Part shown: one piece after another, positions 17,446 to 61,400 of the stretch | How the letters are laid out: every line of letters starts with the position of its first letter | How positions within the stretch are numbered: the first letter of the stretch is position 1 | Source: an uncultured Planctomycetia bacterium | Lineage (GTDB): Bacteria > Omnitrophota > Gorgyraeia > 2-02-FULL-51-18 | DNA length: 64,000 nt | Assembly: GCA_964606485.1 (NCBI GenBank) | Contig: CAZSGP010000006.1 | Coordinates: 62,925-126,924, forward strand | Direction of reading: 5' to 3' | The notes under the pieces: generated by a model | The model's input: only the letters and a program-made list of their open reading frames with translations | Databases searched by the model: none | Told to the model about the DNA's origin: nothing | Position numbers and translations under genes: made by a program

Positions 17446-17475
17446 TGAACCTTCCTTTGTACAAGTTTGGTTATT

Positions 17476-18243: not shown

Positions 18244-18245
18244 CT

Positions 18246-19001
18246 TTAACCGAACCTTCCGGAAATATAATCTTCCGTGCGTTTGTCGGAGGGTGCGGTG
18301 AACATTTTATTGGTCACGTCCATTTCGACGAGTTGCCCCATTAGAAAAAAAGCAGTTTTGTCGCTCACGCGCGCAGCCTGCTTCGTGTTGTTGGTGACGA
18401 GCACGATGGTGTAGCGTTTTTTAAGCTTTCCCATCGCTTCTTCAATTTTCGCGGTGGAAATCGGGTCAAGCGCCGAGCAGGGCTCATCGAACAAAATCAC
18501 GTCCGGCTCTAGCGCCAAAGTGCGTGCAATGCAAAGGCGCTGCTGTTGACCGCCGGAAAGTTTGGTGGCGAGTTCCCCCATGCGGTCTTTGACCTCATCC
18601 CACAGATAAGCGTCTTTTAAGGATTGTTCGGCAATTTCCATTAGCTTCTTTTTGTCATTCATCCCCTGGCGCCGCGGTCCGTACGCCACATTTTCAAATA
18701 CCGTCATGGGAAGCGGCATGGGTAGCGCAAAAATAATTCCCACTTTTCTTCTAAGCAGCACCGCGTCAAGATCCTTATAAATATTTTTCCCATCAAGCAA
18801 CACCTCTCCTTTCATGTGAAAGGTGGAGGTGTTTTCATTCATGCGGTTGAGTGATCGTAAAAAAGTGGTTTTGCCGGAGTTGGCGGGCCCAATCACGCCC
18901 AAAATCTCGTTGGACGGAATGGAAAGCGAAACTCCTCTCAGAGACTGAACCGATCCGAAGCCGACTTCTAAATTACGAACTTCCATTTTGGCCGTTACCA
19001 T
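18246..19001 (-). CDS. pstB: Phosphate ABC transporter ATP-binding protein PstB (copy 2, tandem paralog)
   Basis: GPANSGKTT Walker [16 protein letters not shown] signature, [11 protein letters not shown]. Confidence 0.85.
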
Positions 19002-20716: not shown

Positions 20717-21580
20717 TTATTTTTTAACGGGAACAAAATCCGTTTTTTCGACAATCACTTGGCCTTCAGGAGACAACGCAAAATCCAAAAACTTTTGAAC
20801 CTCAACCTTCGGCTCGCCATTGGTGTAAAAATAAAGCGGCCGCGAGATCGGATATTTCCCGCTGATCACGTCAGCAATCGAGGGCGATACAAATTCAGAA
20901 CTGGCATCCTTAGCAACTGCAATCGCTTTATGGTCTTTTCCAATGTAGCCCATGCCGTAATAACCAATCGCATCGGCGTTTTGCAAAATTTCATCGGCGA
21001 TCGCTTGGCTGGAGGGCAAAAGCAAGGCTTCGGGTGAAAATTCTTCCTTAGAAGAAGCGTCGTTCTTTCTCAAAACATGCTCTTTGAAATAAACATGTGT
21101 TCCAGAGTTGACTTCGCGGGAAAGGAGCACGATTTTAGCGTCGTTTCCCCCGACCTCTTTCCAATTTTTAATCTTCCCCGTAAAAATTCCAGCCAACTCT
21201 TCCATCGTTAACTTTGAAATAGGGTTTTTTGGACTCACCACCACCGCTAGGCCGTCGAGCGCAACTTTGTATTCTTTGGGAGAAACTTTTTTTTGATTGG
21301 CCAGATCAATCTCTTTCGGCTTCATTTCACGGGAGCTAGCCGCAATATCGCAACTGGAGCCAATCAGCGCCGCAATTCCGGTTCCAGAACCACCACCAGT
21401 GACGGCAATAAAAATTTCAGGCTGTTTTTCCATGAACACTTCCGACCAGGCCTGAACCAAATTGACCATGGTGTCCGAACCTTTAATTTGAATAGAATTG
21501 GGTTTGGCCGCAAAAGCGCCTGGGGTATTTAAAACGAGTGTAGCGAAACCTAGAACTAAACCAGCGATCAATTTCTTCAT
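20717..21580 (-). CDS. pstS: Phosphate-binding periplasmic protein PstS
   Basis: Signal peptide, IKGSDTM ... AVTGGGSGTG motif of PstS/PBP superfamily. Confidence 0.85.
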   Translation of the reverse strand: MKKLIAGLVLGFATLVLNTPGAFAAKPNSIQIKGSDTMVNLVQAWSEVFMEKQPEIFIAVTGGGSGTGIAALIGSSCDIAASSREMKPKEIDLANQKKVSPKEYKVALDGLAVVVSPKNPISKLTMEELAGIFTGKIKNWKEVGGNDAKIVLLSREVNSGTHVYFKEHVLRKNDASSKEEFSPEALLLPSSQAIADEILQNADAIGYYGMGYIGKDHKAIAVAKDASSEFVSPSIADVISGKYPISRPLYFYTNGEPKVEVQKFLDFALSPEGQVIVEKTDFVPVKK

Positions 21581-21611
21581 GGATTCCTCCTCTATGCGAA
21601 GACTCTATTCT

Positions 21612-21640
21612 ATGAAGAAATTATGAAGATTTGATGAAGA
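21612..21640 (-). promoter_or_regulatory. Pho box: three direct TCTTCAT repeats (gene strand) at exact 11-bp periodicity, 32-60 bp upstream of pstS start
   Basis: Forward-strand ATGAAGA at 21612, 21623 and 21634 (7-bp repeat + 4-bp spacer), the PhoB-type direct-repeat architecture; phoB and phoR are encoded just upstream. Confidence 0.7.
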
Positions 21641-21642
21641 CG

Positions 21643-22761
21643 CTACCGGAGAGGGAGTTCAATTTTAAACGTCGATCCTTGGCCCTCTTGGCTTTCGACG
21701 CTCAAGCGGCCGCCCTGCTTTTCAACCATGTGCTTGGCAATGGAAAGACCAAGCCCCGTGCCACCGGTCTCACGTGAGCGGCTCTTGTCGGCACGGTAAA
21801 AACGCTCAAAAATGTGGGGCAGATCCGCGCTCGAAATACCGATACCCGTATCTTTCACGAGAATTTGGAAAACATCCGTCTTTGCGTTTAGCTCGATCGC
21901 AATAGACCCGCCCTCTTTGTTATAGTTCACCGCATTCGCAAGAATGTTGGTCAATACTTGCTCAAGCAGCGTTCTGTCAGTGTTCACCCAGAAAGGGTGG
22001 TTATCCGTTCGGATATGAAATCGAATTTTTCTGATCTTCATTTGTGGTGCGAGGCTTTCCGAAAGATTATGAACCAGTGCTTCGAGATCTATTTTTTCCA
22101 GTCGAACGGGAATTTCGGCAGACTCAAGTTTCGAAAGCAAGAGCAAATCTTCAATGAGACGATGGAGTTTGTGCGAATGTTCTTCAATCACGTTTAAAAA
22201 TTTCATCCGGTTTTCGACGTCATCGACTGCACCTTCTTTAAGCGTCTCGACAAATCCCAGAATGGACGTGAGCGGGGTTTTGAGTTCGTGTGAAACGTTC
22301 GCTACAAATTCCGAACGCATTCGCTCTAAATTTTTAAGGCGTGTCACATCATGAAAAACAGCGATCGCCCCCAGAAATTCGCTGTCACTGGCCACCGGCG
22401 ACAGGTGTACCTGAAAAACCAGATCGGAAAGTTGAATTTTATGCTCTTTTTCAAAATGTACTTTTTCTTCAAGCACGCGGCGGATCATGGCATTGAGCTC
22501 CGAGTCACGAAACACTTCCCAGTAATCGCGGCCAATCACATTTTCCTTCTTAAATTCGAGTGACTCACATAAAACGGAGTTGATAAGAAGAATTTTTTGG
22601 TTCGCGTCGATGACCACGACGCCCTCGGCCATGCTCTCCAAAATAGCTAAAAGCCGCTCGTTCTCCCGGGATGTTTTTTGAAAAAGATCGCGTAGATCAG
22701 TGAGCTCTTGAGGCAACGAACTCTTTGAATGAGAAGAAAGTGGATTTTTTTTAAACCACAT
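21643..22761 (-). CDS. phoR: PhoR-like sensor histidine kinase (PAS + HisKA + HATPase); no N-terminal transmembrane segments apparent
   Basis: H-box SHELKTPLTSILGF, N/G1/G2 boxes (NAVNYN, VKDTGIGI, GGTGLGLSI), adjacent to phoB. Confidence 0.8.
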   Translation of the reverse strand: MWFKKNPLSSHSKSSLPQELTDLRDLFQKTSRENERLLAILESMAEGVVVIDANQKILLINSVLCESLEFKKENVIGRDYWEVFRDSELNAMIRRVLEEKVHFEKEHKIQLSDLVFQVHLSPVASDSEFLGAIAVFHDVTRLKNLERMRSEFVANVSHELKTPLTSILGFVETLKEGAVDDVENRMKFLNVIEEHSHKLHRLIEDLLLLSKLESAEIPVRLEKIDLEALVHNLSESLAPQMKIRKIRFHIRTDNHPFWVNTDRTLLEQVLTNILANAVNYNKEGGSIAIELNAKTDVFQILVKDTGIGISSADLPHIFERFYRADKSRSRETGGTGLGLSIAKHMVEKQGGRLSVESQEGQGSTFKIELPLR

Positions 22762-23449
22762 TGGCTTCAGAAAACCGGTAACCGGTGCCGCGCACGGTTT
22801 CGATCAAATCACGGTATTTGCCGAGTTTTTTTCGTAAGCTTTTGATGTGCACGTCTACCGTGCGGTCCACCACAAATGCCTCACCCTGCCAGGCGCCACT
22901 CAAGAGTTGGTCACGCGAAAATGCCTTACCGCGATTTTCCATAAGATACGCTGCAATATTAAACTCCAACTTTGTGAGGGGAACGGGTTTTCCCTTAATC
23001 GAAAAAATCATTTTTTCGCGATCAACTTCAAGCGGTCCTGCCGAAATAATTTTTTTAGGTTCTCCTGATGGAGCGCTTTGATTTCGAAAGATATTTTTTA
23101 TACGCGCCAAGAGAACTTTTACACTAAATGGCTTCGAAACATAGTCCGTCGCACCAATTTCAAGACCGACCACCTGGTCAATCTCACTCCCCTTGGCGGT
23201 AAGCATTACGACCGGGATACGCTTAGTCGCCGATTGCGCCCGCAAAAGCCTGCACACTTCAAGGCCGTCCATTTTGGGGAGCATAAGATCCAAAATAATG
23301 AGATCGGGTTTCTTGGCTTGAGCAATCTCCAGGCCGGCTTCTCCGGTTTCAGCGGTGAAAACGCTGTAGCCTTCTTTTTCGAGATTGTACTGCAGGAGTT
23401 TTAGAATATCCTTTTCGTCATCAATGACTAAAAGGTTTTTTTTAGCCAT
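22751..23449 (-). CDS. phoB: OmpR-family response regulator, PhoB-like
   Basis: Receiver domain (LLVIDDEKD, DLIILDLMLP, K in LTAKG) plus winged-helix C-terminal DNA-binding domain (RTVDVHIKSLRKKL). Confidence 0.85.
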   Translation of the reverse strand: MAKKNLLVIDDEKDILKLLQYNLEKEGYSVFTAETGEAGLEIAQAKKPDLIILDLMLPKMDGLEVCRLLRAQSATKRIPVVMLTAKGSEIDQVVGLEIGATDYVSKPFSVKVLLARIKNIFRNQSAPSGEPKKIISAGPLEVDREKMIFSIKGKPVPLTKLEFNIAAYLMENRGKAFSRDQLLSGAWQGEAFVVDRTVDVHIKSLRKKLGKYRDLIETVRGTGYRFSEANVV

Positions 23450-23451
23450 GG

Positions 23452-24150
23452 TTATTTCTTGGGCTTGTCGAGAATGTCTTTGACCTTCTGGCGGATATTT
23501 TCATGAATCACGTCTACCGTTTGGCGCGCATCCACTACTTCAAATCCAAATTCCTTGGCGAGTTTGTCGTAATGCGTGATCAGCGTCGATTGGTAATTCA
23601 CAAAACTGTCGAAAAGATCCTGGCCCATGTGAAGATCCATGCCGGCTTCCCAGTAATTCATGCCACCGGACTCAATCACGCGTGGAATCAGCGCTTCGAT
23701 ATCAAGCTTAAGATAAACCGTGAGATCCGGAACAAGGCCAAATCCAAAAAGATTCCGCACCCACTGTTGGTTCGGGTCCCGCACAGCGTCGCGCACGATA
23801 GCCGTATAAATGTAGCGGTCCGCCAAAACAATGTGGCCCGATTTAAGAGCTGGGATAATCTGATTTTCCAATCGATCCGCAAAATCCGTGGCATACAGTA
23901 ACGTAAACGTCATGCGGTCCATCATGTTGCCGGCTTTGGCCATTTCGATGGATTTGCTCATCAAATTTGAGCGCGTCCAGCCGGTTTCTGCGACAGCATA
24001 CCCTTGGACCTCAAGCCATGATTTTAAAAGATCCACCTGAGTCGAGCGGCCCGATCCATCGGTGCCTTCGATGCAGATGAGCTTTCCTTTTAACTTGTAC
24101 GGCTTAAGATACGGTAAACCTTCGCCAAAATACTTTGGGTCGTTTGGCAT
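23452..24150 (-). CDS. Thymidylate kinase family protein (Tmk-like, first of tandem pair; P-loop GTDGSGRST)
   Basis: IEGTDGSGRSTQ P-loop, DRY-type motif LADRYIYT, LID region; the 47-nt overlap with the upstream paralog suggests the true start is downstream of the track start. Confidence 0.65.
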   Translation of the reverse strand: MPNDPKYFGEGLPYLKPYKLKGKLICIEGTDGSGRSTQVDLLKSWLEVQGYAVAETGWTRSNLMSKSIEMAKAGNMMDRMTFTLLYATDFADRLENQIIPALKSGHIVLADRYIYTAIVRDAVRDPNQQWVRNLFGFGLVPDLTVYLKLDIEALIPRVIESGGMNYWEAGMDLHMGQDLFDSFVNYQSTLITHYDKLAKEFGFEVVDARQTVDVIHENIRQKVKDILDKPKK

Positions 24151-24832
24151 AAATCGTCCTTTTCTTCGAGTAACCTTTGAGAATGTCTTTGACGTATCCG
24201 CGCATCAGGTCCTGTTGTTCATGAATTTCCTGAGTGGCGTCCATCGAGGTCAAATCAAACTCCCCCACCATCTTGGAATATTCGTCGAGAATCTTGGATT
24301 GGAAAATTTTGAAGCTCTCGCGGATATCGGTGTGAAGATTCAAGTCCATTCCCGCTTCGTAAAATTTAATTTGAGCGCGATTCGTCAAGATCCGCTCGCA
24401 AGCAACTTGAATCGGCACGTTGAAATAAAAACTGATGTCCGGCTTTACTGCAAAATTGTATAAATTCCGTACCCAGCGAGCGTCTACTCCGCGGACCACG
24501 TCGCGCGCAAACGCGGTGTAAGCATAGCGATCGGCAAGCACTATCATGCCGGCTTTGAGCGGCGGGATAATTTGATAATTTAAACGGTCTGCAAAATCAG
24601 CGGCGTGCAAAAGAGAAAAGGTGCTAGGGGTAAGAATATTTTTCTTTTTTCCCTCACGGGTCGTTTCCTTCACAAGTTCCGAACTATTCCACTCGGTGAA
24701 GAAAACCGAAAAACCCTGGGATTCGAGCCATTTCTTGAGAAGCCCGACCTGCGTGCTCTTTCCTGAACCGTCGATCCCCTCGACGATAATCAACTTTCCT
24801 GGAAATTCGTGTTTTTTATCAAAGACGCCCAT
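24104..24832 (-). CDS. Thymidylate kinase family protein (Tmk-like, second of tandem pair)
   Basis: VEGIDGSGKSTQ P-loop, LADRYAYT, same fold as neighbour. Confidence 0.7.
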   Translation of the reverse strand: MGVFDKKHEFPGKLIIVEGIDGSGKSTQVGLLKKWLESQGFSVFFTEWNSSELVKETTREGKKKNILTPSTFSLLHAADFADRLNYQIIPPLKAGMIVLADRYAYTAFARDVVRGVDARWVRNLYNFAVKPDISFYFNVPIQVACERILTNRAQIKFYEAGMDLNLHTDIRESFKIFQSKILDEYSKMVGEFDLTSMDATQEIHEQQDLMRGYVKDILKGYSKKRTIYAKRPKVFWRRFTVS

Positions 24833-29517: not shown

Positions 29518-30654
29518 ATGCACGCTTACGACCTACTCACCGCCGCAGGCCTGATCGCCGGCGCATTTTATCTATGGAATTCTCCTAGCTTGAAAGACGT
29601 GTCCGCTAGTCAGAAGCTGCTCGCCTTTTTTATTGCCTTTTGGGTGCAATCCATCGGTTCCATGATCATTCCGTTTATGTATCACTCACTCTACCTTCAT
29701 GAAGCGCTTTGGGTGGACATCTGGAAAAGATCGCCGGGCCGGTATTTCCACAGCGCGGCCCTTGCGAGCATTGCGTTTTGGGTCATCTGGTCAGCCGCCA
29801 AAAAACGCCCCTCTCGTCCTATTTTGGATGACCTTGCCATCACTATTTTGATTGTCAGTTCCATCGCCCGCATTGGCTGTTTTCTTCAAGGCTGTTGCGG
29901 CGGGAAAGCTGGCGCGTTTCCACCTCAAATCTACATGTTTGCAATGGAAACGGCTCTTTGGGTCGCTCTACTCATTTTTGACCGCAAGAAAAAACAGTAC
30001 GACAGCCAAGTTTTCTGGCTTGGCGTGTTTGGGTATTCGATTTATCGGTTTGGAATTGAGTTTGTCCGCACAAACCCAATTTTTTGGAACGGCCTCACCC
30101 ACGCGCAAGTGTTTTCAATTTTCACACTGGGTTTAAGCGGATTTTTTATTTATTTTCACCGCAACCCCGCGCGGAAAATTACCATCAATCCCAATCACAT
30201 TCTCTCGCCGGCAGACGGAACCATCATTGGCGTGGGCCAAGAAATTCCGGATCCCTTCGACAACCGCGCATGGCCCTGCGTTTCAATCTTTTTATCCATT
30301 TGGGATGTGCACATCAACCGCTCGCCGCTGGAAGCGACGGTCGAAGCGGTGAGCTATAAGCCGGGAGATTTTAAACTCGCTACCGATTTAAAAAATTTCG
30401 CACGCAATGAAAGCAACTGGCTTCTTCTGTCGGCGCAAGGCAAAAAATTCGTGGTCCGCCAAATTGCGGGACTTTTAGGCCGGAAAATTGTGTGCTCAAG
30501 TGAAAAAGGCGACGCGCTTAAACAGGGTGACGTGTTCGGGAGAATCCTTCTCGGCTCTGGCACTCAAGTTTATTTGCCGCAAGGGTATAAAATTTGCGTT
30601 AAAATGGGTGACAAAGTTAAAGCCGGAATAACCGTGATGGCTACTAAGGAATAA
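29518..30654 (+). CDS. Fusion protein: N-terminal Lgt-like (prolipoprotein diacylglyceryl transferase family) membrane domain + C-terminal phosphatidylserine decarboxylase (PSD) domain
   Basis: N-domain blocks FHSAALASIAFWVIWSAAKKRPSRP..DDLAITIL..ARIGCFLQGCCGG..YRFGIEFVR parallel E. coli Lgt FHGGLIGV..ARRTKRSF..DFIAPLIP..GRLGNFINGELWG..FRIIVEFFR. C-domain has PSD motifs ILSPADGTIIG and LGSGTQVYLP. Confidence 0.55.
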   Translation: MHAYDLLTAAGLIAGAFYLWNSPSLKDVSASQKLLAFFIAFWVQSIGSMIIPFMYHSLYLHEALWVDIWKRSPGRYFHSAALASIAFWVIWSAAKKRPSRPILDDLAITILIVSSIARIGCFLQGCCGGKAGAFPPQIYMFAMETALWVALLIFDRKKKQYDSQVFWLGVFGYSIYRFGIEFVRTNPIFWNGLTHAQVFSIFTLGLSGFFIYFHRNPARKITINPNHILSPADGTIIGVGQEIPDPFDNRAWPCVSIFLSIWDVHINRSPLEATVEAVSYKPGDFKLATDLKNFARNESNWLLLSAQGKKFVVRQIAGLLGRKIVCSSEKGDALKQGDVFGRILLGSGTQVYLPQGYKICVKMGDKVKAGITVMATKE

Positions 30655-32221: not shown

Positions 32222-33150
32222 TTAAGACCTAAGTTCCCCGCTCTTATGCCCACTGATCAAGACATCGCTCGGAGCGGTTCCGGTGGGAATGGTTTGAAGC
32301 ACGCTGTCCTTGTTTAAATCAATCAGGCTGACATTGGATGACAGTTGATTCGTCACATAAGCCTTGTTTCCTTCGGGAGTGATGGTGATTCCCATGGGCC
32401 GGGTCCCCACCTGAATGCGGGCTCTCTCCTCAAAATTTTTAAGATTGATCACGGAGATGGTGTTGTCGTTGCGGTTTGAGACAAGCAGAGTTGATTCCTT
32501 AGGATCAATTTCAATGGCATAGGGGCCATCTCCTACTTTGATTTCTTTTAGGAGATCTCCAGATTGGGTGTCGAGCGCTTTGAGAACTCCTTTGGAATAA
32601 TCGGTGACGTAAAGTGTTTTTTCATCTCTTGAAAGGTGAAGCCCCAAAGGTTGGTCGCCCGCTTTGAAGGTATTCATAATATTCCCAGATTTGGTGTCCA
32701 TTTTTGAAACCGTACCATCTAGCGTATTGGAAATAAAAAGCGTGTCTCCAGATTGAGTCATGGCCGCTTTCAAGGGCATTGAGCCATGTGTTGGAAAATT
32801 TTGGGTTTTTGAGGTCGCAAGATCCAGCACTTCAACGCTGTCGGTGAGTGAATTCGTCACATAAGCTTTCTGTTCGTCAGGGCTCAAAACCGCGTTGGAA
32901 GAACCTTCTGAAAATACGGTCTTTGATTTGGTATTAAAAGTATTGGTGTCAATTGAAGAAACTTTTCCATTTTGAGAGAAGAGATACACTTTATCGCTTT
33001 TTTTTGCGGCAACCAGATCCGCAGGAGCTTCTTTTATTGAAATATCTTGAATAGAGTCATTCACCTTTGCGCGCTTCACGTTCAGTCCGTCTTTAGTCAG
33101 GACGTAGACACCTCTCATATTGAGAGAAGTCTGAGAGGATAAAGGTTTCT
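32222..33150 (-). other. YVTN-family beta-propeller at C-terminus of the TpsA-like exoprotein
   Basis: Four or more YVTN-type repeats. Confidence 0.55.
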
Positions 33151-36100
33151 TATTCTCATCCAGCAACGCTCGGCTTTGAGCTTTTTCTCCGTCATAGACC
33201 ATACGACCATTAAAGTCGACGGCGCCTTCTTCAACTTCGAGCGTGCTTTTAGCGACGATGGGCGCGGTATTGTTAAGAGCGCCATTTGGCGAGACTGATT
33301 CCTGTAAATTTGGCAAAGATAAGTTTACTGTCGCTACAGAGCCCTGCACAGAACCTTCGGCTGCTTTTTCTGTGGAGCTCTCTTCGGATGTCTTTGACTC
33401 CGGATTTAAATCTTTCTTCTCTTCATCTTTCTTCTTATCTTCCGAAGAATCGATGAGGGATTCATTTTCTGAAAGTTCAGTCGATTGAATAGAGCTTGTT
33501 TGAGCGGGCTCGGAATTTGTCGAAAGCACCGGACTTGTGGAAAGAGAGCTTTCAATCGATCGCTGAGCCGGCTGTGGTTCAACTAAAGCGGGTTGATTCT
33601 GGCTATCTTGAATCCCCAAGTCTAGCGATGGGCCGGTGGGCGCCGCTGATGGAGCGGTGAGTTTTGTGTAGGAAGTGAAGGTGTACAGCGCTCCGTTAGC
33701 ATCTAGGGTATCGTCTATCCCCACCACAAGATTGTCAAACGGCACTGCCGCCTGATCCGTTGAGAGCTGAACCGTTTTGGAATCTCCATCAATGGTGACG
33801 TCTCCAAACGTCGCAAAATCGGCAGTGTTGTATGTGAGAGTCGAGGTTCCTGTTCCGTCCATAGTCCAGGAACCCGAGCCGCGAGTCAGCGAACCGCTAT
33901 TTCCGAAAGTCACGTTCCCAGCAGTCGTCATATTGGGATTATTCGTTGTTAAAACGAGAACCGCGTTGGTCACTGAGAGATCGCCGTTTACATCCAAATC
34001 TCCAAAACTTCCATCTACGACAAAATTACTAGCACCAAATGCCGCGGCAAGAGAAAGATTATTAAAAGCTTGGCTATTGGTTTTCATCTCTCGGTCCGCA
34101 AAGGAGTTTCCACCCCCTAATTGCACTGTGCCTTGTCTGGCTAAAAAGGTGTCTGACACAAACCAGCTGTTACCAATCACGAGTGAATTATTTTCAGCGG
34201 CATTTACATCCAAAATACCGGACGTTAGCGTCATGTCATAGCTTGTCGTTAAAGTGTCTTCCAAAAGAAAAGTAGTTTTTCCACCGGTCGCGCCATTAGT
34301 GTCATTAAAAACCACATTTCTAAAAGTTGCGCCACCCGAGGTGATGGTCTGTGTGCCGGAAGTTTTGTTGAAAGTAAACGTGCCGCCGCCATTATAAGTA
34401 CCACCCGTTTTGGTGAAGTCGCCGGTCAAGCTAATGTCATGAGAACCATCACTAAACGTTCCGTCCGTTTGCACATAATCATGGGTAATGCTAAAGTCAT
34501 TATAGGTTTCGGTTTGGCCCCCGCTCCCGCTAACGGTGAAGTTGTAAAAACTATTTCCCGTGCCACGGATTTCACTCACGCCGGTCCCATTAAAATTAAC
34601 AGTGCTAGTACCCGCGTTAAAAGTTCCTTGGTTGGTAAAATTTCCAGAGACGTTTATGGTGTTCGACCCTGCATTCGCCGTAGCACCGGATTGAATGCCG
34701 AGCATCCGAGTGGTGACGTTGCCGCCCGGCGTAAAGGTATTTCCGGTCCACACAATCAAATCGTATCCTGCGGTGAGTGTCAAATCTGACCCTGAGACCG
34801 AATAAAGAATGTCCGCATCATTCGCGGAACCCTTAGCGGCACTCAAGGTGGCATTTGTAATCACGCTTCCTGTTTCTGAGCGAACGATGACACTATTTTG
34901 ATACATGTCGAGACCAGTCACCGAGGACCCTGCTGCCACCGCAACAGTACTTCCTTCAAAACTCATCATGTCGCTGTTCATAAAAACCAGAACCTTGTCG
35001 CCACTTTGCAAGAATTTATTTAAACGGAAAAAATAAGCGCTGTTCGCGTCAGTGGTTACATCCGAGGCTGCCGACGCACCATTCACAAGCACCGACACGC
35101 TCACTCCCGCCCCTAAACCAAAAATTCCAAAACCCAAATCCGTATTAGCGTGCCCATAGACCACCGACTGCCAATCTAGATAAGGTCCAGCGATGTCTTC
35201 AGCCATAGTCCAGGTGCCCGAAAAATTGAACCCCGTGAAATTTGCCGCCTGTTTCATTTGAGCGGAGGTTAAGCTTGTAATATTCGCAATGTCTCCGTCA
35301 TCATCGGTATCGGTGTGCCCTGGGTTTACATCGGAGTCCCAGTAATTATTGGAGTAGGACCCGGCGTTATTCGTACCGACTAAGCCTCCTGACCCATTCG
35401 ACACGACGCTGGTTGTAAATGAAGTGTTGATCGTTCCGCTATTAATTCCGACCAGGCCGCCTGCGCCCCCAAGATTCGTCACGTTTCCGGTTGAGTAGGA
35501 ATTTGTAATGGTTCCTGAATTATTGCCCACCAATCCTCCGCCACCGCCGTTAAAACCACCGCCCACGCTGGCCGTCGAATAAGAATTTTGAATGGTTCCG
35601 ACGTTGTTGCCGACTAGCCCACCCTGTGCTCCCGTAACTCCGCCGGTTCCGCTAAAAATTCCAGTCGTAAAAGTATTTGAAATCGTAAAACCTTGGTTGT
35701 CACCGACAAGTATTGCGGAGTTACTCTGCGCTGAGACGTTGGCATTGACAAGCCCCACATTAGAAATTGTTTGGGAACTAGCTCCGGATGCATAACCAAT
35801 CAAGCCAACATAGTTTGTGAATGGTCGGTTAATATACAGATCAGAAATGACGTGATTACTCCCGTTGAAAGTCCCGGTAAACGGCGTGGTGTTGTCTCCA
35901 ACCGGTAGAAAGCCCGCCGTAAATCCGCTTCCCCACAAGGAGGTGCCCGCAGCATTGATATCATTGGCCAGCGCATAAGACGCAGATAAATTTCGGCTCA
36001 TCGCTTGCAAGCCGTACACATCGTAAATCGTGTAGGGATTACCACTCGTTCCAGCACCCGTAAAGCGGTTAAACGTTCCGCTGGAAACCGAAAAACTCCC

Positions 36101-44745: not shown

Positions 44746-46800
44746 TCAAGCGCTAGCCGCTAACTGCTGATAAGCAAGAATGGACTGCCAGTACCCAAAA
44801 GCGCTCCTCAGATATTTTTTTAGATCATAATATCCATTCAACATTTCTTTCGGAGGGTTGCTTCCAAATACAAGCTTCAACACTTCCAGGCGATCCTCGG
44901 GCGTGCGAACTTGGCTCATCCAAAACTGAAAACCAGCCTCAAGACGCAGGGCTACTTTTTCTGCAGGCAGTGTTTTCACGCGGCTGTCCATCCCGGCGGC
45001 AATACAAAATGTGTTGTCGCCGAGTTTCTCAAGAATATCTATCGTGTCCCGATAGGGGCTCGCGGACTCGATGAGCTGGCCTTGAAACTTTGGCAGGGCC
45101 TCCAGAGAACTCTTGAGCGCTTCTTTTTGGGAATTCGGTCCCGGATCCAATAAAATAAGCCAATAAGCGCTTGGCATCCCAGAAACAAGCCGGGTAAGTT
45201 CGCGCGTTTCAAGAAGAGAGGCGTCTACGATGTTGACGCGACGCTGACCCGCTGCTTCAATCGGCAGCGGCACAAAAACCGGCCAATTGGAGAGGTTTTT
45301 CTCCAAATCCAAAATTTTCAACAATCTTGTGAGCCGCGCGCCCTTACTATCTTTATCGGTTTTCATTGCCCCGCGCGGTTTTGTTTCCCACGGGTAAGGA
45401 TTGGCGCCGAGTCGGTTTAACGTTTGTGCGGTCTTAAAAATTTTAAGTTTGGCATCTTCAATCCGCATCAATAATTCGCCGATTTTTTGCTCATTTTCCA
45501 TCTGTGATTCTAAGCTTTCATTGGGACTGCGCCAAACTCCCCCTGGAAATATCTTTTGAAATTGCTCCAAGCTCTGATCCAGACGCTCCAACTCCTTTAC
45601 CAAAAGATGCATCGATATAAAAGCTTGGTTGTAAGCCGCGGCAAACTCACTGCGCGCTATTTGAACGCGAAGCTCGGCCTCCTTGACATTGGCTTGGGCC
45701 AAAGCCAAATCCGCCTCAAGTGGCGCGCCAAACGGAACCTTCAGCTGAAACGTTTGTTCACGACTCACAGCGCCATAAGATTCGAGCGGCCGGCCGGCGA
45801 GCTCGTGAAAAAATGGCCCCGGCATGTCACTGGGTCTAGGATTGGTTCCCCAAAAAGCGCCTATATTGAGAGACGCTCTTTGAGTGCGCTCGGCAAACGA
45901 GTAAGCGTGTTGCGCGGCCTCATAATCCCTTTCGGCTGCTAAGATCGCGGGGTTTGCCGCGGCGGCTTCTTGAAACGCAATATTACCGCGCCTCAAGATC
46001 GCCACCGCATTGTTAAAGCTGGTTTCAAAATCCAAAGAAACACTTATCTCCTTTCCTTGATCCAGCGGTGAACCGGAAAGCAGCATGAGTATTTTAGACT
46101 CTAGTTCATTGGCTTCTATATGAAGTTGTAAGATGTCGGCCTGCAACGCGGGGATTTCTCTTTGCGCTTTTTGCCTCGCTTTCTGGTTTGCCGGAACAGC
46201 AAGTTGAGTCAGCCGTTTTAAGGAAACCTGCCGCCCTTCCAAAATCTTTATTTTTTGACGTGTCAAATTAAGTTCAATCAAAAGATCGGCCGCTTGGTTT
46301 TTTTGAGCTAAAACGGTTTCCTGTAAACGGTGAAAACTCGCCAAAACCAATTGGCTCTGAATAAGGCGCGCTTCTTCGTCGGCACCCAGCAGTTTTCGTA
46401 AAAGCGCTCCCGCAAAATCGGCAGCTAAGGACAAACCGTTACTCCCGTAGATCGCCGACAAATTAATAGCCCCACTTGGGGTCATATAGGATACCGCCGA
46501 ACTAACAACCGGTTTATTGCCCTCGAACCCCCCGGTTATTTCGATAGCCCATCCGGGCTCCAGTCTTCCCTGCGCGGCTTCCTGTCGCCAAACATCAAGT
46601 CCCGAAAGTTTGACGTTTAAATTTTTTTCAATGAACGGCCAAAGATCATCGACACTCAAAAGAATCTTTCCGGGTTTGAACTGCTCTGGTATTTGCCGCG
46701 CTGGCTTAGGCGAAATAGGCTCCCAAGGCGCGCTTGCGCAGGACGGAATTATTACAACCGTGGCAAGACTCAGCAGCGACGCCAGTGCAAATGGTTTGCG
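44746..46800 (-). other. NodT/TolC-like outer membrane factor module preceded by its own lipoprotein-type signal peptide (AHRKPFALASLLSLATVVIIPSC) inside the 1,833-aa ORF
   Basis: The positively charged n-region + hydrophobic core + Cys follow immediately after GDGARL (verified DNA at 46795-46830). Downstream coiled-coil repeats (LAQKNQAADLLIELNLTRQKI..., EAELRVQIARSEFAAAYNQAF...) are typical of OMF proteins, and NodT-family OMFs are N-terminally lipidated. Confidence 0.5.
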
Positions 46801-49800
46801 ATGAGCGAGTCTTGCGCCATCACCTTGAACCAGTCTTAGCAGTTCCGACGCTAGTTTCTTTTCTTCATCACTCCAATTTAGCGAAACAAGTGTTGCGTTT
46901 GGTAAAAAATTAACATAATTGGAAGAAAGTGTCATTTTTCCGTCTAGCCCAAGAGTTAAAAACTGCGTAAGATTTCCTGCAAATTCACCGTCTAACGCAG
47001 CAAAACCTGATTGCATTTCCCACTTCCAAATCCTCCTTAAATTTTTAAGTGCCGCTACCCGAATCGCTTTATTCGGGTCTTTTGCGGCAGCGATGAGGTA
47101 GTCCGAAGCGGAAATGACTTTTTTGCGACCAATAAAATTTATGGCTAACACACGGTAATTGGTTTCAATGCCCGAACTGAGGGCAAGCTCTCCTGCATAA
47201 GCAATATCCAGATACCATTTTTGCAATCTCGCATTCTTTCCTTTAGTGGCTTCATCCAATCGGAAGATATTCTGAATCACCCTCTCAAATTGTTTCGCGT
47301 CGCTCGCTTTGAGCGCTAAGGACGCCCGATCATCTTCTTTATCCCAATCTGAGATCACCGAAAGCGCGGGATCTTCTGGGTTAAATTTTTTTATCGGGAG
47401 ATTCCGTCCTTCTTCGATCCAGCTCCGCAAATTTATGGCAGTTTTTTCGGGACCGTCAGACTCGATCAAAACCATCGCGTATTGATGAAGAGCTCCTTTC
47501 ATGCCAACCGTAACGGTATACATGTCGTTCTGGGCGATCTTTCTTAAAATGGCGTTATTGACGCCGTCATGAAATTCCTTAGTCGAAAGTAATTGGATTA
47601 GGACTTGGCGGGCTTGCTGTTTCTGCTCTTCATAAGAACGGACAAGCGCCGGTGTTTTTTCGGGAGGTTGCCGTTTGAGAAGTTCGAGCAAGCCTTCCGT
47701 GTAACTTTCTGTGGGATTCGCTAAAGCCGACTGCAATACCGCCTTAAGGACGTAGTAATCTTTTTCATTTTCCAAGCCGTAACGAACAAATGATGTTGCG
47801 CGGTCAGCGCCGGCAATTTTTGGCAAAGCGAGATAAGCGGCGTATCGCGCAAAAAGACTCGGATCTTCCTGAGTCATTTGAGCAATTCGTATGGCGGCAT
47901 CCTTTCGAAGCGCTTCTGAAAAAATATTTGCTTGGTCCGCTAAAGCTGCCTTTCTTAAAGCTTCCGCGCTCATAAAGCGAACCAGATCATCCGGGTCGCT
48001 CAACCCGTATTGAATCAAAATCTGGATGTCAGCCTGGTTTGGTCCGATCATCACGAGCCACTGCGCAGCCAGGGCCCGCAAAATCCTCACGCCTTCCCTA
48101 TTCCAAAAACCATACGGGTCATTTCCGGAGTCAGGCCTCAGCATTTCATGCGCCGTAAGAATCCCTTCAGCTTTCCGGTTAAAAATAAGGTGCATCATTG
48201 CAACATAACGCTCCGCCCAAGGCCTTGATCTGTCTTTCAAGACCGCAAGCGCTGAGGGTTTAAAATCAGTGTCCTCGTAGGCCTCAATCTTACCGATAGC
48301 GCCAGAATTTTGGAGCTTCTCAAGTTCTTTGTAAGTCATTTCGTTGCATAGCGGACAAGAATCCATTTTGGATACGGGGCTCATGATTTGGATACGCGGA
48401 AGCTTTCCATAATCCTCGACCGGAATAATGTCCGCTGTTCTTGAAACGGCGGATCTGCCGTTTATGATGGATATCTCAGAGGTCATTCTTCTAGCAACCT
48501 GATACAAATCGTCTTCGGTCGGAACAGCAGAATCAAAATTTTTGGAAAGACTCGGCAGGCTAAGCTCGGATTTGGGAGGCGTTTGAGTTTCTTTTGCGCT
48601 TTGAATCGAACACGCGGGCAATGCCAAAATCAAGGCGCCGGCTGCCGCCATCAAGATACCGCCATCTGGCTGCCGCGTGACAAGTCTTGCGCCCAGAGGT
48701 GTATCCAATCGAACCCCATCGGGACTCATTGATACGAGCTGAATAGAAGAAACGGCTTCGGCGCCAGGAAGAAAACGACGCGTCAGCACTGTCGGCGCGC
48801 TGACAGTCGATGGGCCATGATTTTGAGAATAAATTTTTGAATTTCCGATAGGATTTATCTCAATAATTTTTTTTGAACTTTCATTTTGATCCAACAAACC
48901 CAAATACTGCTTCTTTAGCAGGTTTAAATCGTAACCGTTGAACACCGCGGCGCCAAACATCGCATAAAGCATTTCGGTCATACGGGCCTGAATCGCGCGG
49001 CGGCTCTGACTGTTGAGAGCCCGGAATTCATAGAGACGCTTGGAATCGAGTTTCTCAAGCTTTGGCCTTAAAACCGTGACATTCAATCCGCGAAGCCTCA
49101 AATCGTTCACAAGGCCCGCCGTATGAAACCCACCCACCACTAAAACGGCTTCCGGAGATTTGCGGCGGCGCATTTGGGCCAAAAGATTTTCCGCCATCGG
49201 CTTTTCTCGCGCCACAACACCTTCATAGAAACACAAACAGGCTTTGAGACGAGCTTGAAGCGACTTAAATTCGCTTTCCGAAAGAAAATGGTTTGGATTT
49301 TCAAGACTTGCTATTCTAAAAACATCTTCACGAGACGCTTCTAGCGCCATAACTCTTTCAATACGTCTAAGCCTGCGCACTGACTCGAGCGCACGAAGCT
49401 CATCTGTGGACGACGCTTCTAAAAGAAGCATCCGCTCCGACAGCCTTTGAATTTCATCGGCAACATCTTCCGCTAATACGCCCTCAGGGAGAATATTTTT
49501 TTCAAATAGAACACTAAACCTCGGCGCGCTAAAACCGGTTCCCTCAAGCTTATGCAGAGCTTGCTTCAAATCCTCAAAAAATTCTTTGCCGGTCGTTGTC
49601 TCAGGCCGGTCTAGGGCATTCATCCAGCGGATCACTCCCGAGGATAGCGTTTCATTTTCCATCGCACTAACCATTTTTGAGAATTTTTGAATTTGCGGGT
49701 TGAGCTGGACACCTTCTCGTTTTAAGCGCGCGTAGACTTTCCAGTTATGGCTATAAAGTCTAGGGTCTTCGACGCCCCGGATTTCAACTTCAGCCTCAGT

Positions 49801-50247
49801 CGTAATCGCCGCATATTCTGCGGCCGAAATTTTAGATTCGCGCAGCAGTTCAAAGGCCGCATTTTTTCGGATTTCCGTATCCGGAAATGATTTGAGAAAT
49901 GAAATTTCAGGTTCACCCGAAGCGCCTTCGATGCCAATCAGGCTTTTAGGTTCATTTTCAAGAATGGTTTGAACAATTTGAGCAATCTGAATCTGCCCCC
50001 CAAGGCTTGAATGGATATCTTCAATTAACCATACGCTCGGCTGATTCGGAGATTGGCTCGATAGATTCTTGCCGCCTACTTCCAATGAATATGCAAAATT
50101 TTCAATACAAAACACCGCTACTATAAGACTCGTAATAAATTTAAAATAAAATGGCTTACTAAACATAAATATCTCCAAAAAATAGCAGTATCCCTCGCTA
50201 ATGCGGGGATTAAAATGAACGGATTCCCGCGGTGGCGGGAATGACAA
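44746..50247 (-). CDS. Giant multidomain protein (1,833 aa by track; likely true ATG start about 50166, MFSKPFYFKF...). Domain order: signal peptide, TraB/GumN-like N-domain, internal lipoprotein-type signal peptide, HEAT-like repeats, second internal lipobox signal peptide, C-terminal NodT/TolC-like outer-membrane-factor module
   Basis: Shares N-terminal domain with the 1..14892 ORF (VWLIEDIH, VLVVGGFHTAGL). Contains G-A-R-L three times. The first 27 track codons (TTG start) read through GC-rich hairpins, an unlikely coding region. Confidence 0.8.
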   Translation of the reverse strand: MSFPPPRESVHFNPRISEGYCYFLEIFMFSKPFYFKFITSLIVAVFCIENFAYSLEVGGKNLSSQSPNQPSVWLIEDIHSSLGGQIQIAQIVQTILENEPKSLIGIEGASGEPEISFLKSFPDTEIRKNAAFELLRESKISAAEYAAITTEAEVEIRGVEDPRLYSHNWKVYARLKREGVQLNPQIQKFSKMVSAMENETLSSGVIRWMNALDRPETTTGKEFFEDLKQALHKLEGTGFSAPRFSVLFEKNILPEGVLAEDVADEIQRLSERMLLLEASSTDELRALESVRRLRRIERVMALEASREDVFRIASLENPNHFLSESEFKSLQARLKACLCFYEGVVAREKPMAENLLAQMRRRKSPEAVLVVGGFHTAGLVNDLRLRGLNVTVLRPKLEKLDSKRLYEFRALNSQSRRAIQARMTEMLYAMFGAAVFNGYDLNLLKKQYLGLLDQNESSKKIIEINPIGNSKIYSQNHGPSTVSAPTVLTRRFLPGAEAVSSIQLVSMSPDGVRLDTPLGARLVTRQPDGGILMAAAGALILALPACSIQSAKETQTPPKSELSLPSLSKNFDSAVPTEDDLYQVARRMTSEISIINGRSAVSRTADIIPVEDYGKLPRIQIMSPVSKMDSCPLCNEMTYKELEKLQNSGAIGKIEAYEDTDFKPSALAVLKDRSRPWAERYVAMMHLIFNRKAEGILTAHEMLRPDSGNDPYGFWNREGVRILRALAAQWLVMIGPNQADIQILIQYGLSDPDDLVRFMSAEALRKAALADQANIFSEALRKDAAIRIAQMTQEDPSLFARYAAYLALPKIAGADRATSFVRYGLENEKDYYVLKAVLQSALANPTESYTEGLLELLKRQPPEKTPALVRSYEEQKQQARQVLIQLLSTKEFHDGVNNAILRKIAQNDMYTVTVGMKGALHQYAMVLIESDGPEKTAINLRSWIEEGRNLPIKKFNPEDPALSVISDWDKEDDRASLALKASDAKQFERVIQNIFRLDEATKGKNARLQKWYLDIAYAGELALSSGIETNYRVLAINFIGRKKVISASDYLIAAAKDPNKAIRVAALKNLRRIWKWEMQSGFAALDGEFAGNLTQFLTLGLDGKMTLSSNYVNFLPNATLVSLNWSDEEKKLASELLRLVQGDGARLAHRKPFALASLLSLATVVIIPSCASAPWEPISPKPARQIPEQFKPGKILLSVDDLWPFIEKNLNVKLSGLDVWRQEAAQGRLEPGWAIEITGGFEGNKPVVSSAVSYMTPSGAINLSAIYGSNGLSLAADFAGALLRKLLGADEEARLIQSQLVLASFHRLQETVLAQKNQAADLLIELNLTRQKIKILEGRQVSLKRLTQLAVPANQKARQKAQREIPALQADILQLHIEANELESKILMLLSGSPLDQGKEISVSLDFETSFNNAVAILRRGNIAFQEAAAANPAILAAERDYEAAQHAYSFAERTQRASLNIGAFWGTNPRPSDMPGPFFHELAGRPLESYGAVSREQTFQLKVPFGAPLEADLALAQANVKEAELRVQIARSEFAAAYNQAFISMHLLVKELERLDQSLEQFQKIFPGGVWRSPNESLESQMENEQKIGELLMRIEDAKLKIFKTAQTLNRLGANPYPWETKPRGAMKTDKDSKGARLTRLLKILDLEKNLSNWPVFVPLPIEAAGQRRVNIVDASLLETRELTRLVSGMPSAYWLILLDPGPNSQKEALKSSLEALPKFQGQLIESASPYRDTIDILEKLGDNTFCIAAGMDSRVKTLPAEKVALRLEAGFQFWMSQVRTPEDRLEVLKLVFGSNPPKEMLNGYYDLKKYLRSAFGYWQSILAYQQLAASA
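50190..50242. repeat. Two adjacent GC-rich palindromic hairpins (ATCCCTCGC-TAAT-GCGGGGAT and ATTCCCGC-GGTG-GCGGGAAT) in the leader of giant ORF 2
   Basis: Perfect 8-bp stem at 50223-50242; imperfect 8/9-bp stem at 50190-50210; located between the stop of the small upstream ORF (50252) and the likely ATG of the giant ORF (about 50166). Confidence 0.55.
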
Positions 50248-58436: not shown

Positions 58437-61400
58437 TTAGGCGGAGGCGAGCACGTGGCGCTCGGCAAGCCGCGCAGCCGAAACGGCTTCGTCGACGCTC
58501 ACCTTAAAGGCTGCCTTGAGAACGATGGTTTCTATCTGTGAGAGTTCCAGACCTGCCTTAACGGCGATCCTATAAAGAAATTGATTATCAATAAACGTAT
58601 TCGCGCTAATAACTTTCCACGCACTAATCGTCGAGTCACTAATACGACCTTCTGAATTATGCACCGCAATGGCCAACTGATCCAAAGAGTAGTAAGCAAA
58701 TACCTGCCCTTCCGAAAGCTTCTCAACTGGCAGGTACAAAACCTTTGAATTTGGATCAGGGTGAGTTATTTTTTGAAAATTATTTGTAAAACAAATCTGG
58801 TCTTCGAAGGCTTTGTCGCCCGGGTTTAAAATTTCACCCACCGCTTTCTTGAAAATTGGGATCTTATCCCCTCGGACACCAAAGCTTTCGGCATCCTCTA
58901 GCATTTTGTTTTTGTATGTTGCCAAATAAGCGTAGGCCCTAGCCCTAAGAACTTCATCGGACGAATTCAATACCGCATTTAAAGGAAGTTTGGGGGAGCT
59001 GAGTTTAATCCGAAGCAAGGCCAGTGCTCTTAATTCAAGATTCGTTTCCAAAGTTCGATCATTGTCCGCTCTTAGCGCATCCAAATCAAAACCGATGGTT
59101 AATGGTTTTGTAAGTGTCTCAGGAACTCTTTGTCCCAACGCATTTGACACTGCATTTTCCATAGTTTGCAGAGCAAAATCCGCCTGACGCGCGGACAAAA
59201 CCACGAGTGAGCTAGGTCGTTTCTTTGCCGGATCTGCAAGTTCAATGGGCAAAGCTTTAGGATCGCTTTGAATGCGGATTTGAATCTGATTTCCCTTTTC
59301 TTCAAAAACCACAACAGATGTTTTTTCTTTTAAGGTGACCGCAACGGCTTTACCAGCCACCAAATCTCCAAAATGCTCAAATACCCGCTGACTAAAACCG
59401 GACACGAGTTCTGGATAAGCCAATTCCGCCGCCAACTTATTGACGTACCGCTGAAGATCGCCCGGGCTAAAAGGCTTTGCTAGCGCTACTGTGTTAATGC
59501 CAAGAGCTGATTTAAATTCAGGGTTGCTTGTATCCCCTGAAATAAAAATAACAGGTACTCGCGAAGAAGTTTGAATGCCCATCGCCCCTTGGCGCAAAAC
59601 ACCGATGACGTCCAAACCCATGTAAATCTTACCTTCGATTTTTTTAGAATCCCTCGTATTGTTATCGGTAATTATTAGATCGAATGGCTCTGAATTTTTA
59701 AGGGCCTCTAGCGCTTCGGATGAATGTGCAACCTCTACGATATCGCCATCTTTCACGCCCATTCTCACAAGAGTCATCCTCATAATCCTTCGAAGAGGCT
59801 CTTCATCATCAACAATTAGCACTTTTTTAAACGTAACAGCAGGTTTTGGCGCGCTTTCTATCGGCCGCTCAACAGAGGGCATTGCCGGCACCACCGGCGA
59901 AAATGGATTGCTCGAATTTTTTCTTTCAAGATTTCTAAGCGCCGAGGAAGCCTTGATAGCCGAGCTCACAATCGCTTGATAAGATTGTTGGCTCAGAACC
60001 TCAGCGGGCATCATTGAATACTCAAGAAAACCGAATCCCGTTAGGGCACTCGCCAGAAGGGCTAATTGAATCTCGGCGTCTCGAACACCGGAAAGCTTCT
60101 GTATTAATTGTTCATTCTGCACGAGAGCACGTCTGTACAAAAGAAGCAGCGGCCCTACAACATCTCTTTGATTTTCATAGGTCTCGCCCATCTCAAGTTT
60201 CCCAGAGAGAATGCTCATTTCTCCGATAATTTCACTTAACTGTGCCAGTGGATTGTCAAAATCAAGCACCAAAAACTTTCTTCCTTCCGCTTCACCAAAC
60301 GGATAATCAATACCAGAATTCAAATAAAACGTTAGGCTGTGAGAAATGGATTGAATGGCGCTAAACTCCCTAAGGAGAAGTTCCCGGTCATCAGCACTAA
60401 GAGGTTTCTCCGCAATCAAGGCGAGACAATTCATCGCTTTATTGGGAAGCTCGTATTTTCCAGATCCCCCCCTATTCCTTCTCAAAGTTTCGACAATCAC
60501 TCTTTCGCTCAGATTGACTTGAAGATCCGCCTCCCTTCCAATGTTTTTATGTATAAGATTCGATAACTCTCCCAGCTGGAACTGAGCCTCCTCCATTACT
60601 GAATCATAATTTCCTCCGCGATTTTGAGCAAAAGCAAGAATGTGAATGGGTGTGTCCAATTGGGAGACGATATGACTGAGCCTCTCCGAGAACTCTTTCA
60701 AAAACACCGATTTTCTAGCCTCCTCATGACTAAAACCCTCAGGCTTCTTGAACGAATAAGTCGTTTCCGAAAGCCGCGCGGCGGATTGAATGGACTGAAT
60801 TTTTTTTCGATTCGTTTCCTGGTACTGCCTCCAAATAAACCCGGCAAGCCTGTTTATTTTTGGATCAATTTCTTGTGCCGATATAAAAGTTTGTGGAACA
60901 GTTTTTTGGGGAGCATTCATGGCTGTCAAAATTAATGCGATGAGCGTTTGAGTGTCTAAGTCTTTAATGTCTTCGTAGCGCCGGTATGTCCAATCGATCC
61001 GGCTTATTTGATTGTCAAAATATAGAACAAAAGGAACACTCAGGCTCTCCATTTGGCTAACCCACATATCAGTGGCCTTCGAATCTGTTTGGCTTGAGTT
61101 TATGTTGCCGATGATTTTTTCATGAAGCCGTTTCATTTGACCATAGATATCAATATCGGTTTTTTCAAGAACCCTTAAAAAGTCAGCTGGGTTTTCATTC
61201 ATATCGGCCGACAGAATCGCAATCATAGCCCGCTTGACGCGGAGGTTAAACTGAGTTTTCAGAGCTCGTTCATCAGTAAGCGGTTTTGAAATCTCAGAAA
61301 GCCGCGCGGCGCTTACCACTTTTGACTCTGCAAGAATTCCCATCTCCACTAAGAGCTTGGGATTGCTCTCTTCTCCGACTCCTCTGGAATAGCGCTGTAC

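Follow-up and report, generated by a model that had tools for sequence, protein, structure and literature searches.

Layout of the giant gene o2

The window analysed here is a stretch of 64,000 nucleotides from an assembly labelled uncultured Planctomycetia bacterium and placed by GTDB in the Omnitrophota (GenBank GCA_964606485.1, contig CAZSGP010000006.1, positions 62,925 to 126,924). Its minus strand carries four giant open reading frames (ORFs), of which three, named g1, o2 and o3, are related to one another and the fourth is different in kind. The gene under study, o2, comprises 1,833 codons without an internal stop, and its recorded product of 1,806 amino acids (aa) begins with MFSKPF at an ATG at window position 50166. 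An N-terminal domain (N-domain), a HEAT-repeat module, a module resembling outer-membrane factors (OMF) and a C-terminal module follow one another along this frame, and each boundary is occupied by the tetrapeptide GARL (Table 1). Exactly three hydrophobic segments are found along the whole ORF. The only detectable relatives of o2 are other giants, which share just its first ~450 residues; its C-terminal module has no match in Pfam or NCBIfam.

Table 1. Coordinates of the features discussed, in window positions.
Feature	Position	Strand	Remark
Giant ORF g1	1..14904	-	Same class as o2; runs off the window
g1 junction AARL (3525..3514) and the hydrophobic segment SGITLGTLAVLAVAASIANILYK following it	3445..3525	-	Fourth such site in the window
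g1 junction GARL	13053..13042	-	
Lipoprotein-type signal PVYINRVSALALSLLLAAC after this g1 junction	12985..13041	-	Canonical lipobox
C-terminal end of the g1 product (P0015)			...ASRLASQMADRAA
Giant ORF o2	44746..50247	-	1,833 codons
N-terminal signal-like segment of o2, MFSKPFYFKFITSLIVAVFCIENFAYSLEVG	50074..50166	-	
Tiki/RRSP/EreA/ChaN-fold N-terminal domain of o2	49006..50073	-	Bears IEDIH, IEGA, FY..VVAR and GGFH
o2 junction 1, GARL	48682..48693	-	GGC GCA AGA CTT; weaker GVRL 8 residues upstream
Signal-peptide-like segment VTRQPDGGILMAAAGALILALPAC after junction 1	48610..48681	-	Non-canonical lipobox LPAC
o2 module 2, HEAT-repeat protein	46819..48609	-	PF13646, PF02985
o2 junction 2, GARL	46807..46818	-	GGC GCA AGA CTC
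Signal-peptide-like segment AHRKPFALASLLSLATVVIIPSC after junction 2	46738..46806	-	Non-canonical lipobox IPSC
o2 module 3, OMF-like	45343..46737	-	Pfam OEP repeat at 45550..45975
o2 junction 3, GARL	45331..45342	-	GGC GCG CGG CTC
o2 module 4, C-terminal	44749..45330	-	194 aa; ends ...AYQQLAASA
Tail of o2, ...QQLAASA	44749..44790	-	
Giant ORF o3	58437..64000	-	Same class; N-domain cut off by the end of the window, with GGYHAP near 63900
Tail of o3, AARLAERHVLASA	58440..58478	-	
Fourth giant ORF	32222..37615	-	1,797 aa; different in kind
LGT domain joined to phosphatidylserine decarboxylase domain	29518..30654	+	One ORF
Standalone ORF with lipoprotein-like start MQKILWMGCFFQAIIFLSPAC	39929..41194	-	421 aa; ...FLSPAC
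Phosphate regulon	16783..23449	-	Assigned by eye
Two tandem thymidylate-kinase-like ORFs	23452..24832		Assigned by eye from translations

A sequence-only reading of this stretch had drawn attention to three GARL sites, two in o2 and one in g1, each followed directly by an n-region, an h-region and a Cys, and had concluded that the modules behind them are translationally fused and not mis-called separate genes. The three sites and their signal-like segments were recovered in the present analysis (at 13053 in g1 and at junctions 1 and 2 of o2). The Leu codons of these sites, CTC in g1, CTT at junction 1 and CTC at junction 2, are not starts, the ORF is continuous, and internal initiation cannot yield the third module together with its signal. 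The length given for the region behind IIPSC, about 620 aa, had to be revised, as 492 aa lead up to the third GARL and a separate module of 194 aa follows it. Altogether the earlier proposal of fused modules with lipoprotein-type signals, one of them OMF-like, is partly supported.

The third module had been described as an apparently complete NodT-like precursor. An outer-membrane factor would have two tandem repeats of the Pfam profile PF02321 (OEP). Module residues 278-419 match this profile with 29.3 bits (E 9e-7), above the gathering score of 22, over one repeat only, and the first half of the module gives no OEP match even at E <= 10. Between the two halves there is a weak alignment (E 0.44), with LN[LI][SG]A.[YW]G.N in common, and long helical hairpins with short strands are predicted. 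NCBIfam returned no family at E <= 1, and hence no TolC/NodT model, and phmmer against the PDB returned nothing at E <= 10. Like the lipoproteins of the NodT family, such as OprM and CusC, module 3 has ~470 aa after the Cys, a Cys-terminated signal and an OEP repeat; unlike them, it lies inside a larger ORF, shows no detectable second OEP repeat and carries Pro at position -2 of its lipobox. The part of the description that holds is the match to the OEP profile, and the module is called OMF-like here, not a demonstrated member of the NodT family.

The junction motif and the signals behind it

Chance would place 0.32 copies of GARL in the frames of g1, o2 and o3, which total 8,668 aa. They hold 16, none of 2,000 shuffles gave more than 4, and all remaining frames and regions of the window have only 5. 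The tetrapeptide belongs to a junction that recurs throughout the family, [GA]-A-R-[LM]-[A/S], and AARL, AARM and GGRL are further forms found in g1 and o3. The full-length g1 product (P0015, 5,725 aa) has 15 [GA]AR[LM] sites and, according to Pfam, comprises an HTH_8 module, a SecA-like ATPase (SecA_DEAD and P-loop_SecA), a histidine phosphatase (His_Phos_1), a 6-phosphogluconolactonase-like module (Glucosamine_iso) and a Peptidase_M50; o3 has three GARL and three AARL sites, with HTH_3 and Response_reg modules. Loci of relatives were recovered by a degenerate-pattern scan with the pattern of the N-terminal segment, one genome per species. The 48 loci obtained all belong to metagenome-assembled genomes of Candidatus Omnitrophota or to records auto-labelled 'uncultured Planctomycetia', with several copies per genome, and in them the density of [GA]AR[LM], in sites per 1,000 aa, is 1.97 for ORFs that have 1,000 aa or more and 0.16 for shorter ones. 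Among 149 representative giants, amounting to 426 thousand aa, 731 such sites were counted where 59 would be expected, and the most enriched k-mers after the N-domain are GARLA (322 versus 1.64 expected, 196-fold) and GARMA (74 versus 0.3). A logo of 233 sites reads Ser or Ala, then Gly (74%) or Ala, Ala, Arg, Leu (80%) or Met, followed by Ala (67%), Ser, Thr, Gly or Val, and the flanks of these sites are unconserved and linker-like. The sites are spaced at protein-sized intervals (median 262 aa, interquartile range 144-486), and the first lies at a median position of aa 579, just past the N-domain.

At the junctions of the window Arg is written with all six of its codons and Leu with four. 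Since the codons vary synonymously, it is the peptide and not a DNA element that is under selection, and the idea that GARL stems from a DNA-level repeat or a recombination scar was rejected. A self-cleaving junction that works through an acyl shift (N-O or N-S), as in intein, SEA or Ntn types, was rejected as well: the residue at +1 is mostly Ala, then Ser, Thr, Gly and Val, which argues against such a reaction and fits a protease site. Moreover, all Pfam domains of the three window giants fall within modules, and several of them stop no more than ~20 aa from a site. In the relative P0004 a unit consisting of a ~150-aa domain and a phosphoglycerate kinase is duplicated, and its copies open with the junctions AARM, GARI and GARL. 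The same protein also has GARS and ADARL, which suggests decaying or variant sites. Thirteen relatives longer than 1,500 aa lack [GA]AR[LM], and some of them are enriched in PRMA (7 versus 0.16 expected) or in GSRL; these forms suggest that the junction varies between lineages about a common core, R-[LM]-A. The fourth giant of the window, which begins with a TPS/filamentous-haemagglutinin N-terminal domain and ends in YVTN/lactonase-type beta-propeller repeats, has neither GARL nor the Tiki-like head and serves as an internal negative control.

Behind two of the three o2 junctions a hydrophobic core ending in Cys starts within 6-8 residues, and g1 adds a third such site. Lipoprotein signals of the PROSITE PS00013 type have Lys or Arg within the first 7 residues, an uncharged h-region and the pattern [LIVMFWSTAG](2)-[LIVMFYSTAGCQ]-[AGS]-C, with the Cys at 15-35. 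When counted by inspection from the residue after GARL, the g1 segment fits this pattern fully; its module gave in Pfam only a weak LptM_cons match over the lipobox region. The n-region, h-region and Cys architecture described for the three segments is present at all of them, and the lipobox is non-canonical in two. Across the family, hydrophobic segments beginning 5-15 aa past a site number 13 against 5.5 expected, a modest excess (2.4-fold) at a signal-peptide-like distance. In addition, twin-arginine (Tat)-like signals directly follow junctions in relatives: P0023 has SARL-AVNRRGFVMAVAGLGLAATGIAQA-P at aa 1405 and P0026 has GARL-AGDTDITRRAILVGAV at aa 1339, also written GARL-AGDTDITRRAILVGAVGLAMVGG. 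The signal-bearing modules of P0023, P0026 and P0132 have no Pfam matches. In 46/124 giants no hydrophobic segment is found past the N-terminus, though cytoplasmic enzymes sit behind the signal-bearing N-domain.

Head domain and tail

Every giant of this class, g1 and o3 included, opens with a signal-like segment and the same ~450-aa domain that heads o2. An AlphaFold model of the domain, calculated from a 10-sequence alignment, is confident (pLDDT 88, pTM 0.80), and structure comparison places it with the parallel beta-sheet core fold of the Tiki/TraB/EreA/ChaN/RRSP superfamily, RRSP being the closest structural match. The residues D-x-H, E, R and GG-x-H are kept in 146/150 representatives, and the other four are truncated. 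The RRSP structure paper (PMC6254334) lists these families as members of the Tiki superfamily and describes a 2His/2Glu catalytic set, E-x-H, E, H, represented in RRSP by E3900, H3902, E3930 and H4030; compared with RRSP, the first acid of the Omnitrophota domain is Asp and not Glu. The residues D/E-x-H, E, R and G-x-x-H are common to this domain and the Tiki/TraB/PrgY/EreA/ChaN superfamily, from which it differs in a ~200-aa helical insertion and in always standing at the N-terminus of a giant protein. Sequence searches with the domain gave nothing above threshold in Pfam (best PF04187, E 0.17, 12.3 bits versus 27.7), no match in NCBIfam and no significant match in a sequence-profile search of the PDB. 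An exhaustive profile search recovered 9,890 cluster representatives with the domain, and 6,440 matched at E <= 1e-30; the domain invariably occupies residues 1 to ~520 of proteins that are mostly 1,000-7,000 aa long. Loss of the catalytic residues was considered as a correlate of the absence of junction sites and dropped, the residue set being intact everywhere.

In the relatives the N-terminal segment passes from a basic n-region through a short h-region to the conserved ending [QN][DE]xAxAA, and is thus Sec-like with an AxA end. It is also conserved in sequence, as F[LG][AVL][QN][DE][LMF]A[FWL]AA, in o2, g1 (14800..14904) and the relatives, which is unusual for Sec signals. The cargo behind this segment is of cytoplasmic type.

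At the other end, the complete giants share a tail, ...[GA]AR[LM]A-x-[KRQ]-[AM]-[VA]-x-x-[AS]A-stop; 99/149 proteins end in AA or SA, and the final AR[LM] often lies 5-10 residues ahead of the stop. Among the roles conceivable for such a tail are those of a degron, of a licensing signal and of a recognition signal. A C-terminal domain of the P0004 type is present in 48/100 complete proteins, and hhalign relates it to the g1 tail with 82% and to that of o3 with 43% probability, and finds no match in module 4 of o2. The proposal of a C-terminal domain common to all giants was therefore found only partly true, as it applies to about half of the complete relatives.

Proposed polyprotein processing and its alternatives

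A single ORF, a short conserved junction between protein-sized units and an embedded domain of protease fold are what is expected of a polyprotein, and all are found here. It is our view, held with slightly better than even confidence, that o2 is a polyprotein cut at its junctions, probably after Leu or Met, which would release modules including lipoprotein precursors. This would be the simplest account because it joins a peptide-level motif enriched some 200-fold, protein-sized spacing, a small +1 residue, a head of protease fold, destinations that are incompatible within one chain, and signals of Sec, lipoprotein and Tat type that begin 5-10 residues past some junctions. Each junction would be cut by an endopeptidase, for which the N-terminal domain, present in every such protein, is the most economical candidate. 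The scissile bond would most likely lie between Leu/Met and the small residue. This position is favoured because it would leave N-termini of Ala, Ser, Thr, Gly or Val, which are stabilising under the N-end rule, because it would leave the basic n-region on the signal-bearing modules, and because it may resemble the cut made by Tiki in Wnt3a. Tiki removes eight residues from Wnt3a, whose N-terminus reads SYPIWWSL/AVGP, so that the Tiki bond would be L/A; the cut would also resemble that of the Leu-specific MARTX protease, whose sites have a small residue next to the Leu on the C-terminal side. The freed modules would act as independent proteins. Modules 2 and 3 of o2 would start with a basic n-region, an h-region of 13-14 residues and a Cys, and would be exported and lipidated, yielding a HEAT-repeat lipoprotein and an OMF-like lipoprotein of TolC/NodT type; an Lgt homologue is encoded in the window. 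Most modules of the family carry no signal and would stay cytoplasmic, among them the helix-turn-helix (HTH) regulators, response regulators, SecA-like ATPase and 6-phosphogluconolactonase encoded here and the phosphoglycerate kinase and hexokinase of relatives.

Several points weigh against this interpretation. Cleavage, the identity of the protease and the compartment are inferred, and the fold does not prove peptidase activity, as the Tiki superfamily also contains esterases and a haem-binding protein. The N-domain bears a Sec-type signal and, if exported, could not cut junctions on the cytoplasmic side; the giants without a further hydrophobic segment argue against an intact multipass topology in general. 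Family-wide, hydrophobic segments after junctions are found at 20/919 sites (2.2%), compared with 1.6% of random positions. The o2 segments, ...LALPAC and ...VIIPSC, miss the lipobox pattern only at -2, where both have Pro, standalone lipoproteins being too few to define a lipobox of this lineage's own. Among the proteins with the N-domain, 29/149 are without [GA]AR[LM], some of them with PRMA or GSRL variants. The OMF identity rests on one repeat of one profile, and no homologue of module 3, standalone or embedded, was recovered by a word-index search, by jackhmmer against 159 giants and all locus ORFs, or in two metagenome scans. Finally, the three hydrophobic segments of o2 allow an alternating topology that is self-consistent without junction cleavage; the sequence-only reading had named a consistent multipass topology as evidence against itself, and it does not come through cleanly on this point.

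That topology belongs to an alternative that we judge unlikely, in which o2 is an uncut, membrane-anchored multidomain giant whose HEAT module lies inside and whose N-domain and OMF-like module lie outside. An N-terminal signal or anchor and two transmembrane helices would hold it in the membrane, GAR[LM]A would be a non-proteolytic linker for docking or flexibility, and signal peptidase II would at most free the OMF-like part. The three hydrophobic segments of o2 are consistent with the alternation, the SecA-like and HTH modules of g1 would stay cytoplasmic, hydrophobic segments are not generally enriched after sites, and such giants are taken by Nielsen & Lui 2026 as membrane-anchored multi-enzyme proteins. 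In such a chain, however, the Cys of LPAC and of LLAAC would face the cytoplasm and the lipoboxes would be coincidental, the Tat-like signals after junctions in relatives would make little sense, and o3 and the 46 relatives mentioned above have no membrane segment between the signal-bearing N-domain and the cytoplasmic-type modules. Passive linkers, too, do not typically consist of a five-residue motif enriched ~200-fold, with a small +1 residue, protein-sized spacing and a last copy that comes 5-10 aa ahead of the stop. Export of the whole chain as an effector polyprotein of MARTX type, cut by the Tiki-like domain or by another protease outside the producer or in a prey or host cell whose machinery would use the internal signals, is more doubtful still. 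The conserved Sec-type N-terminus with its AxA end, the structural match to RRSP, itself a MARTX effector, and the bookend architecture seen in the roughly half of complete relatives with a conserved C-terminal region are all consistent with it, and it has been proposed that Omnitrophota live as predators or episymbionts and that their giant proteins are involved in attacking prey (10.1101/2023.11.21.568195). Against this, the cargo is housekeeping-like (SecA-like ATPase, site-2 protease, response regulators, HTH regulators, phosphoglycerate kinase, hexokinase), Pfam found neither RTX or glycine-rich repeats nor a C80 protease domain in the three giants, and no delivery apparatus is evident among the gene's neighbours.

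The polyprotein reading may also hold with a different enzyme, the junctions being cut in trans by a separate protease and the N-domain being a periplasmic hydrolase or a targeting or quality-control module, and this we regard as quite improbable. The signal peptide places the N-domain apart from the compartment of most junctions, the Tiki superfamily holds non-proteases, N-domain proteins without motif sites keep the catalytic-type residue set, and C39 or S8 domains were proposed as processing enzymes by West-Roberts 2023. Nevertheless, neither a C39 nor an S8 domain was found by Pfam in g1, o2 or o3. Upstream of the junction the logo of 233 sites has no sign of the double-glycine leader consensus (LSxxELxxIxG[GA]) and no conserved hydrophobics, only Ser/Ala at -1, and in all complete examples examined the N-domain goes together with motif-rich cargo. 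Hardly credible at all is a mis-called operon in which internal starts would produce the modules separately. An in-frame ATG does lie 12 codons before the g1 GARL at 13053 (13054..13105), with AAGGA 10 nt before it, and would yield MKRKDRSRSPSEGARLPVYINRVSALALSLLLAAC, so that internal initiation is conceivable at that one site; in addition, position 4 is a Met, encoded by ATG, in about 20% of the sites of the family. There are, on the other side, no stop codons between modules and no ATG, GTG or TTG in frame within 20 codons upstream of the signal of the OMF-like module (the AHRKPF segment after junction 2), position 4 is mostly a CTY Leu in the window, and the same pattern recurs in thousands of independent assemblies. 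An ATG is found 12 codons before the GARL at 48693 too, without a Shine-Dalgarno-like sequence.

A wider version of the polyprotein reading, to which we give a little under an even chance, is that a lineage of Omnitrophota routinely makes part of its ordinary proteome as polyproteins, which would be matured at GAR[LM]/A (the slash marking the bond) by the Tiki-fold protease at their head, with the tail and the N-terminus as control elements. On that same tentative footing, the products would comprise cytoplasmic enzymes, regulators, membrane proteins and envelope proteins exported by the Sec, Tat or lipoprotein routes, such as an outer-membrane channel. If true, the polyprotein strategy of viruses would have a counterpart in cells, a free-living or episymbiotic bacterium expressing housekeeping and envelope proteins in this way, and the annotation of such genomes would change with respect to the number of genes, the completeness of pathways and the prediction of signal peptides. 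Questions on co-translational targeting and on stoichiometric expression in ultra-small cells arise as well.

The giant genes of Omnitrophota are a recognised puzzle. In West-Roberts et al. 2023 (bioRxiv 10.1101/2023.11.21.568195), cleavage by C39 or S8 domains is speculated upon, and the cleavage points are stated to be unknown, which blocks analysis; Nielsen & Lui 2026 (bioRxiv 10.64898/2026.06.07.730766) catalogue giants termed 'multi-enzyme metabolic', which have signal peptides and numerous transmembrane helices, and treat them as intact membrane-associated proteins. The motif described here supplies concrete, testable candidate cleavage points and a rule for splitting giants into units for structure and function prediction. 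The proteins of the window agree with the published giants in phylum, as judged from the 48 loci, in cargo (SecA DEAD-like, response regulator, hexokinase, HEAT) and in having a signal peptide with scattered hydrophobic segments, and they differ from the 2026 catalogue, with its cut-off of 10 thousand aa, in being 1.8-5.7 thousand aa long. The GAR[LM]A junction, the Tiki-fold head, the -[AS]A tail and the post-junction export signals appear undescribed, as far as term searches of both papers and the literature searched go; no paper there joins Omnitrophota to polyproteins and, among the papers listed, none links Omnitrophota to the Tiki family and none bears on GARL.

With MARTX toxins the giants share a large single polypeptide with conserved ends and variable cargo, and the embedded protease that frees modules, a feature of MARTX, is proposed here. 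Unlike MARTX, they have no detected C80 domain, RTX repeats or type I secretion signal, their cargo is housekeeping-like, and the Tiki-like domain is N-terminal and would be the processing enzyme and not cargo. Viral polyproteins, for example of flaviviruses, likewise combine one ORF, a short conserved junction and an embedded protease-fold domain, and internal signals directly after junctions would, as in that case, permit a mixture of cytoplasmic and exported products; the differences are a cellular genome with ordinary neighbouring genes, an unrelated protease fold, and a cleavage that is predicted in the present case.

Other genes of the window

The genes near o2 are znuAB, an ABC-2 transporter, metF, dps and FTR1. 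A standalone ORF that adjoins znuA and znuB has a lipoprotein-like start with Pro at -2, like the internal signals of o2, and no Pfam match. Elsewhere in the window, one ORF joins the LGT (prolipoprotein diacylglyceryl transferase) domain to a phosphatidylserine decarboxylase domain, an unusual fusion of membrane-lipid enzymes. An apparent phosphate regulon, read by eye from the translations, comprises phoU, two pstB, pstA, pstC, pstS, a phoR-like kinase and a phoB-like regulator, and it is followed by the two tandem thymidylate-kinase-like ORFs.

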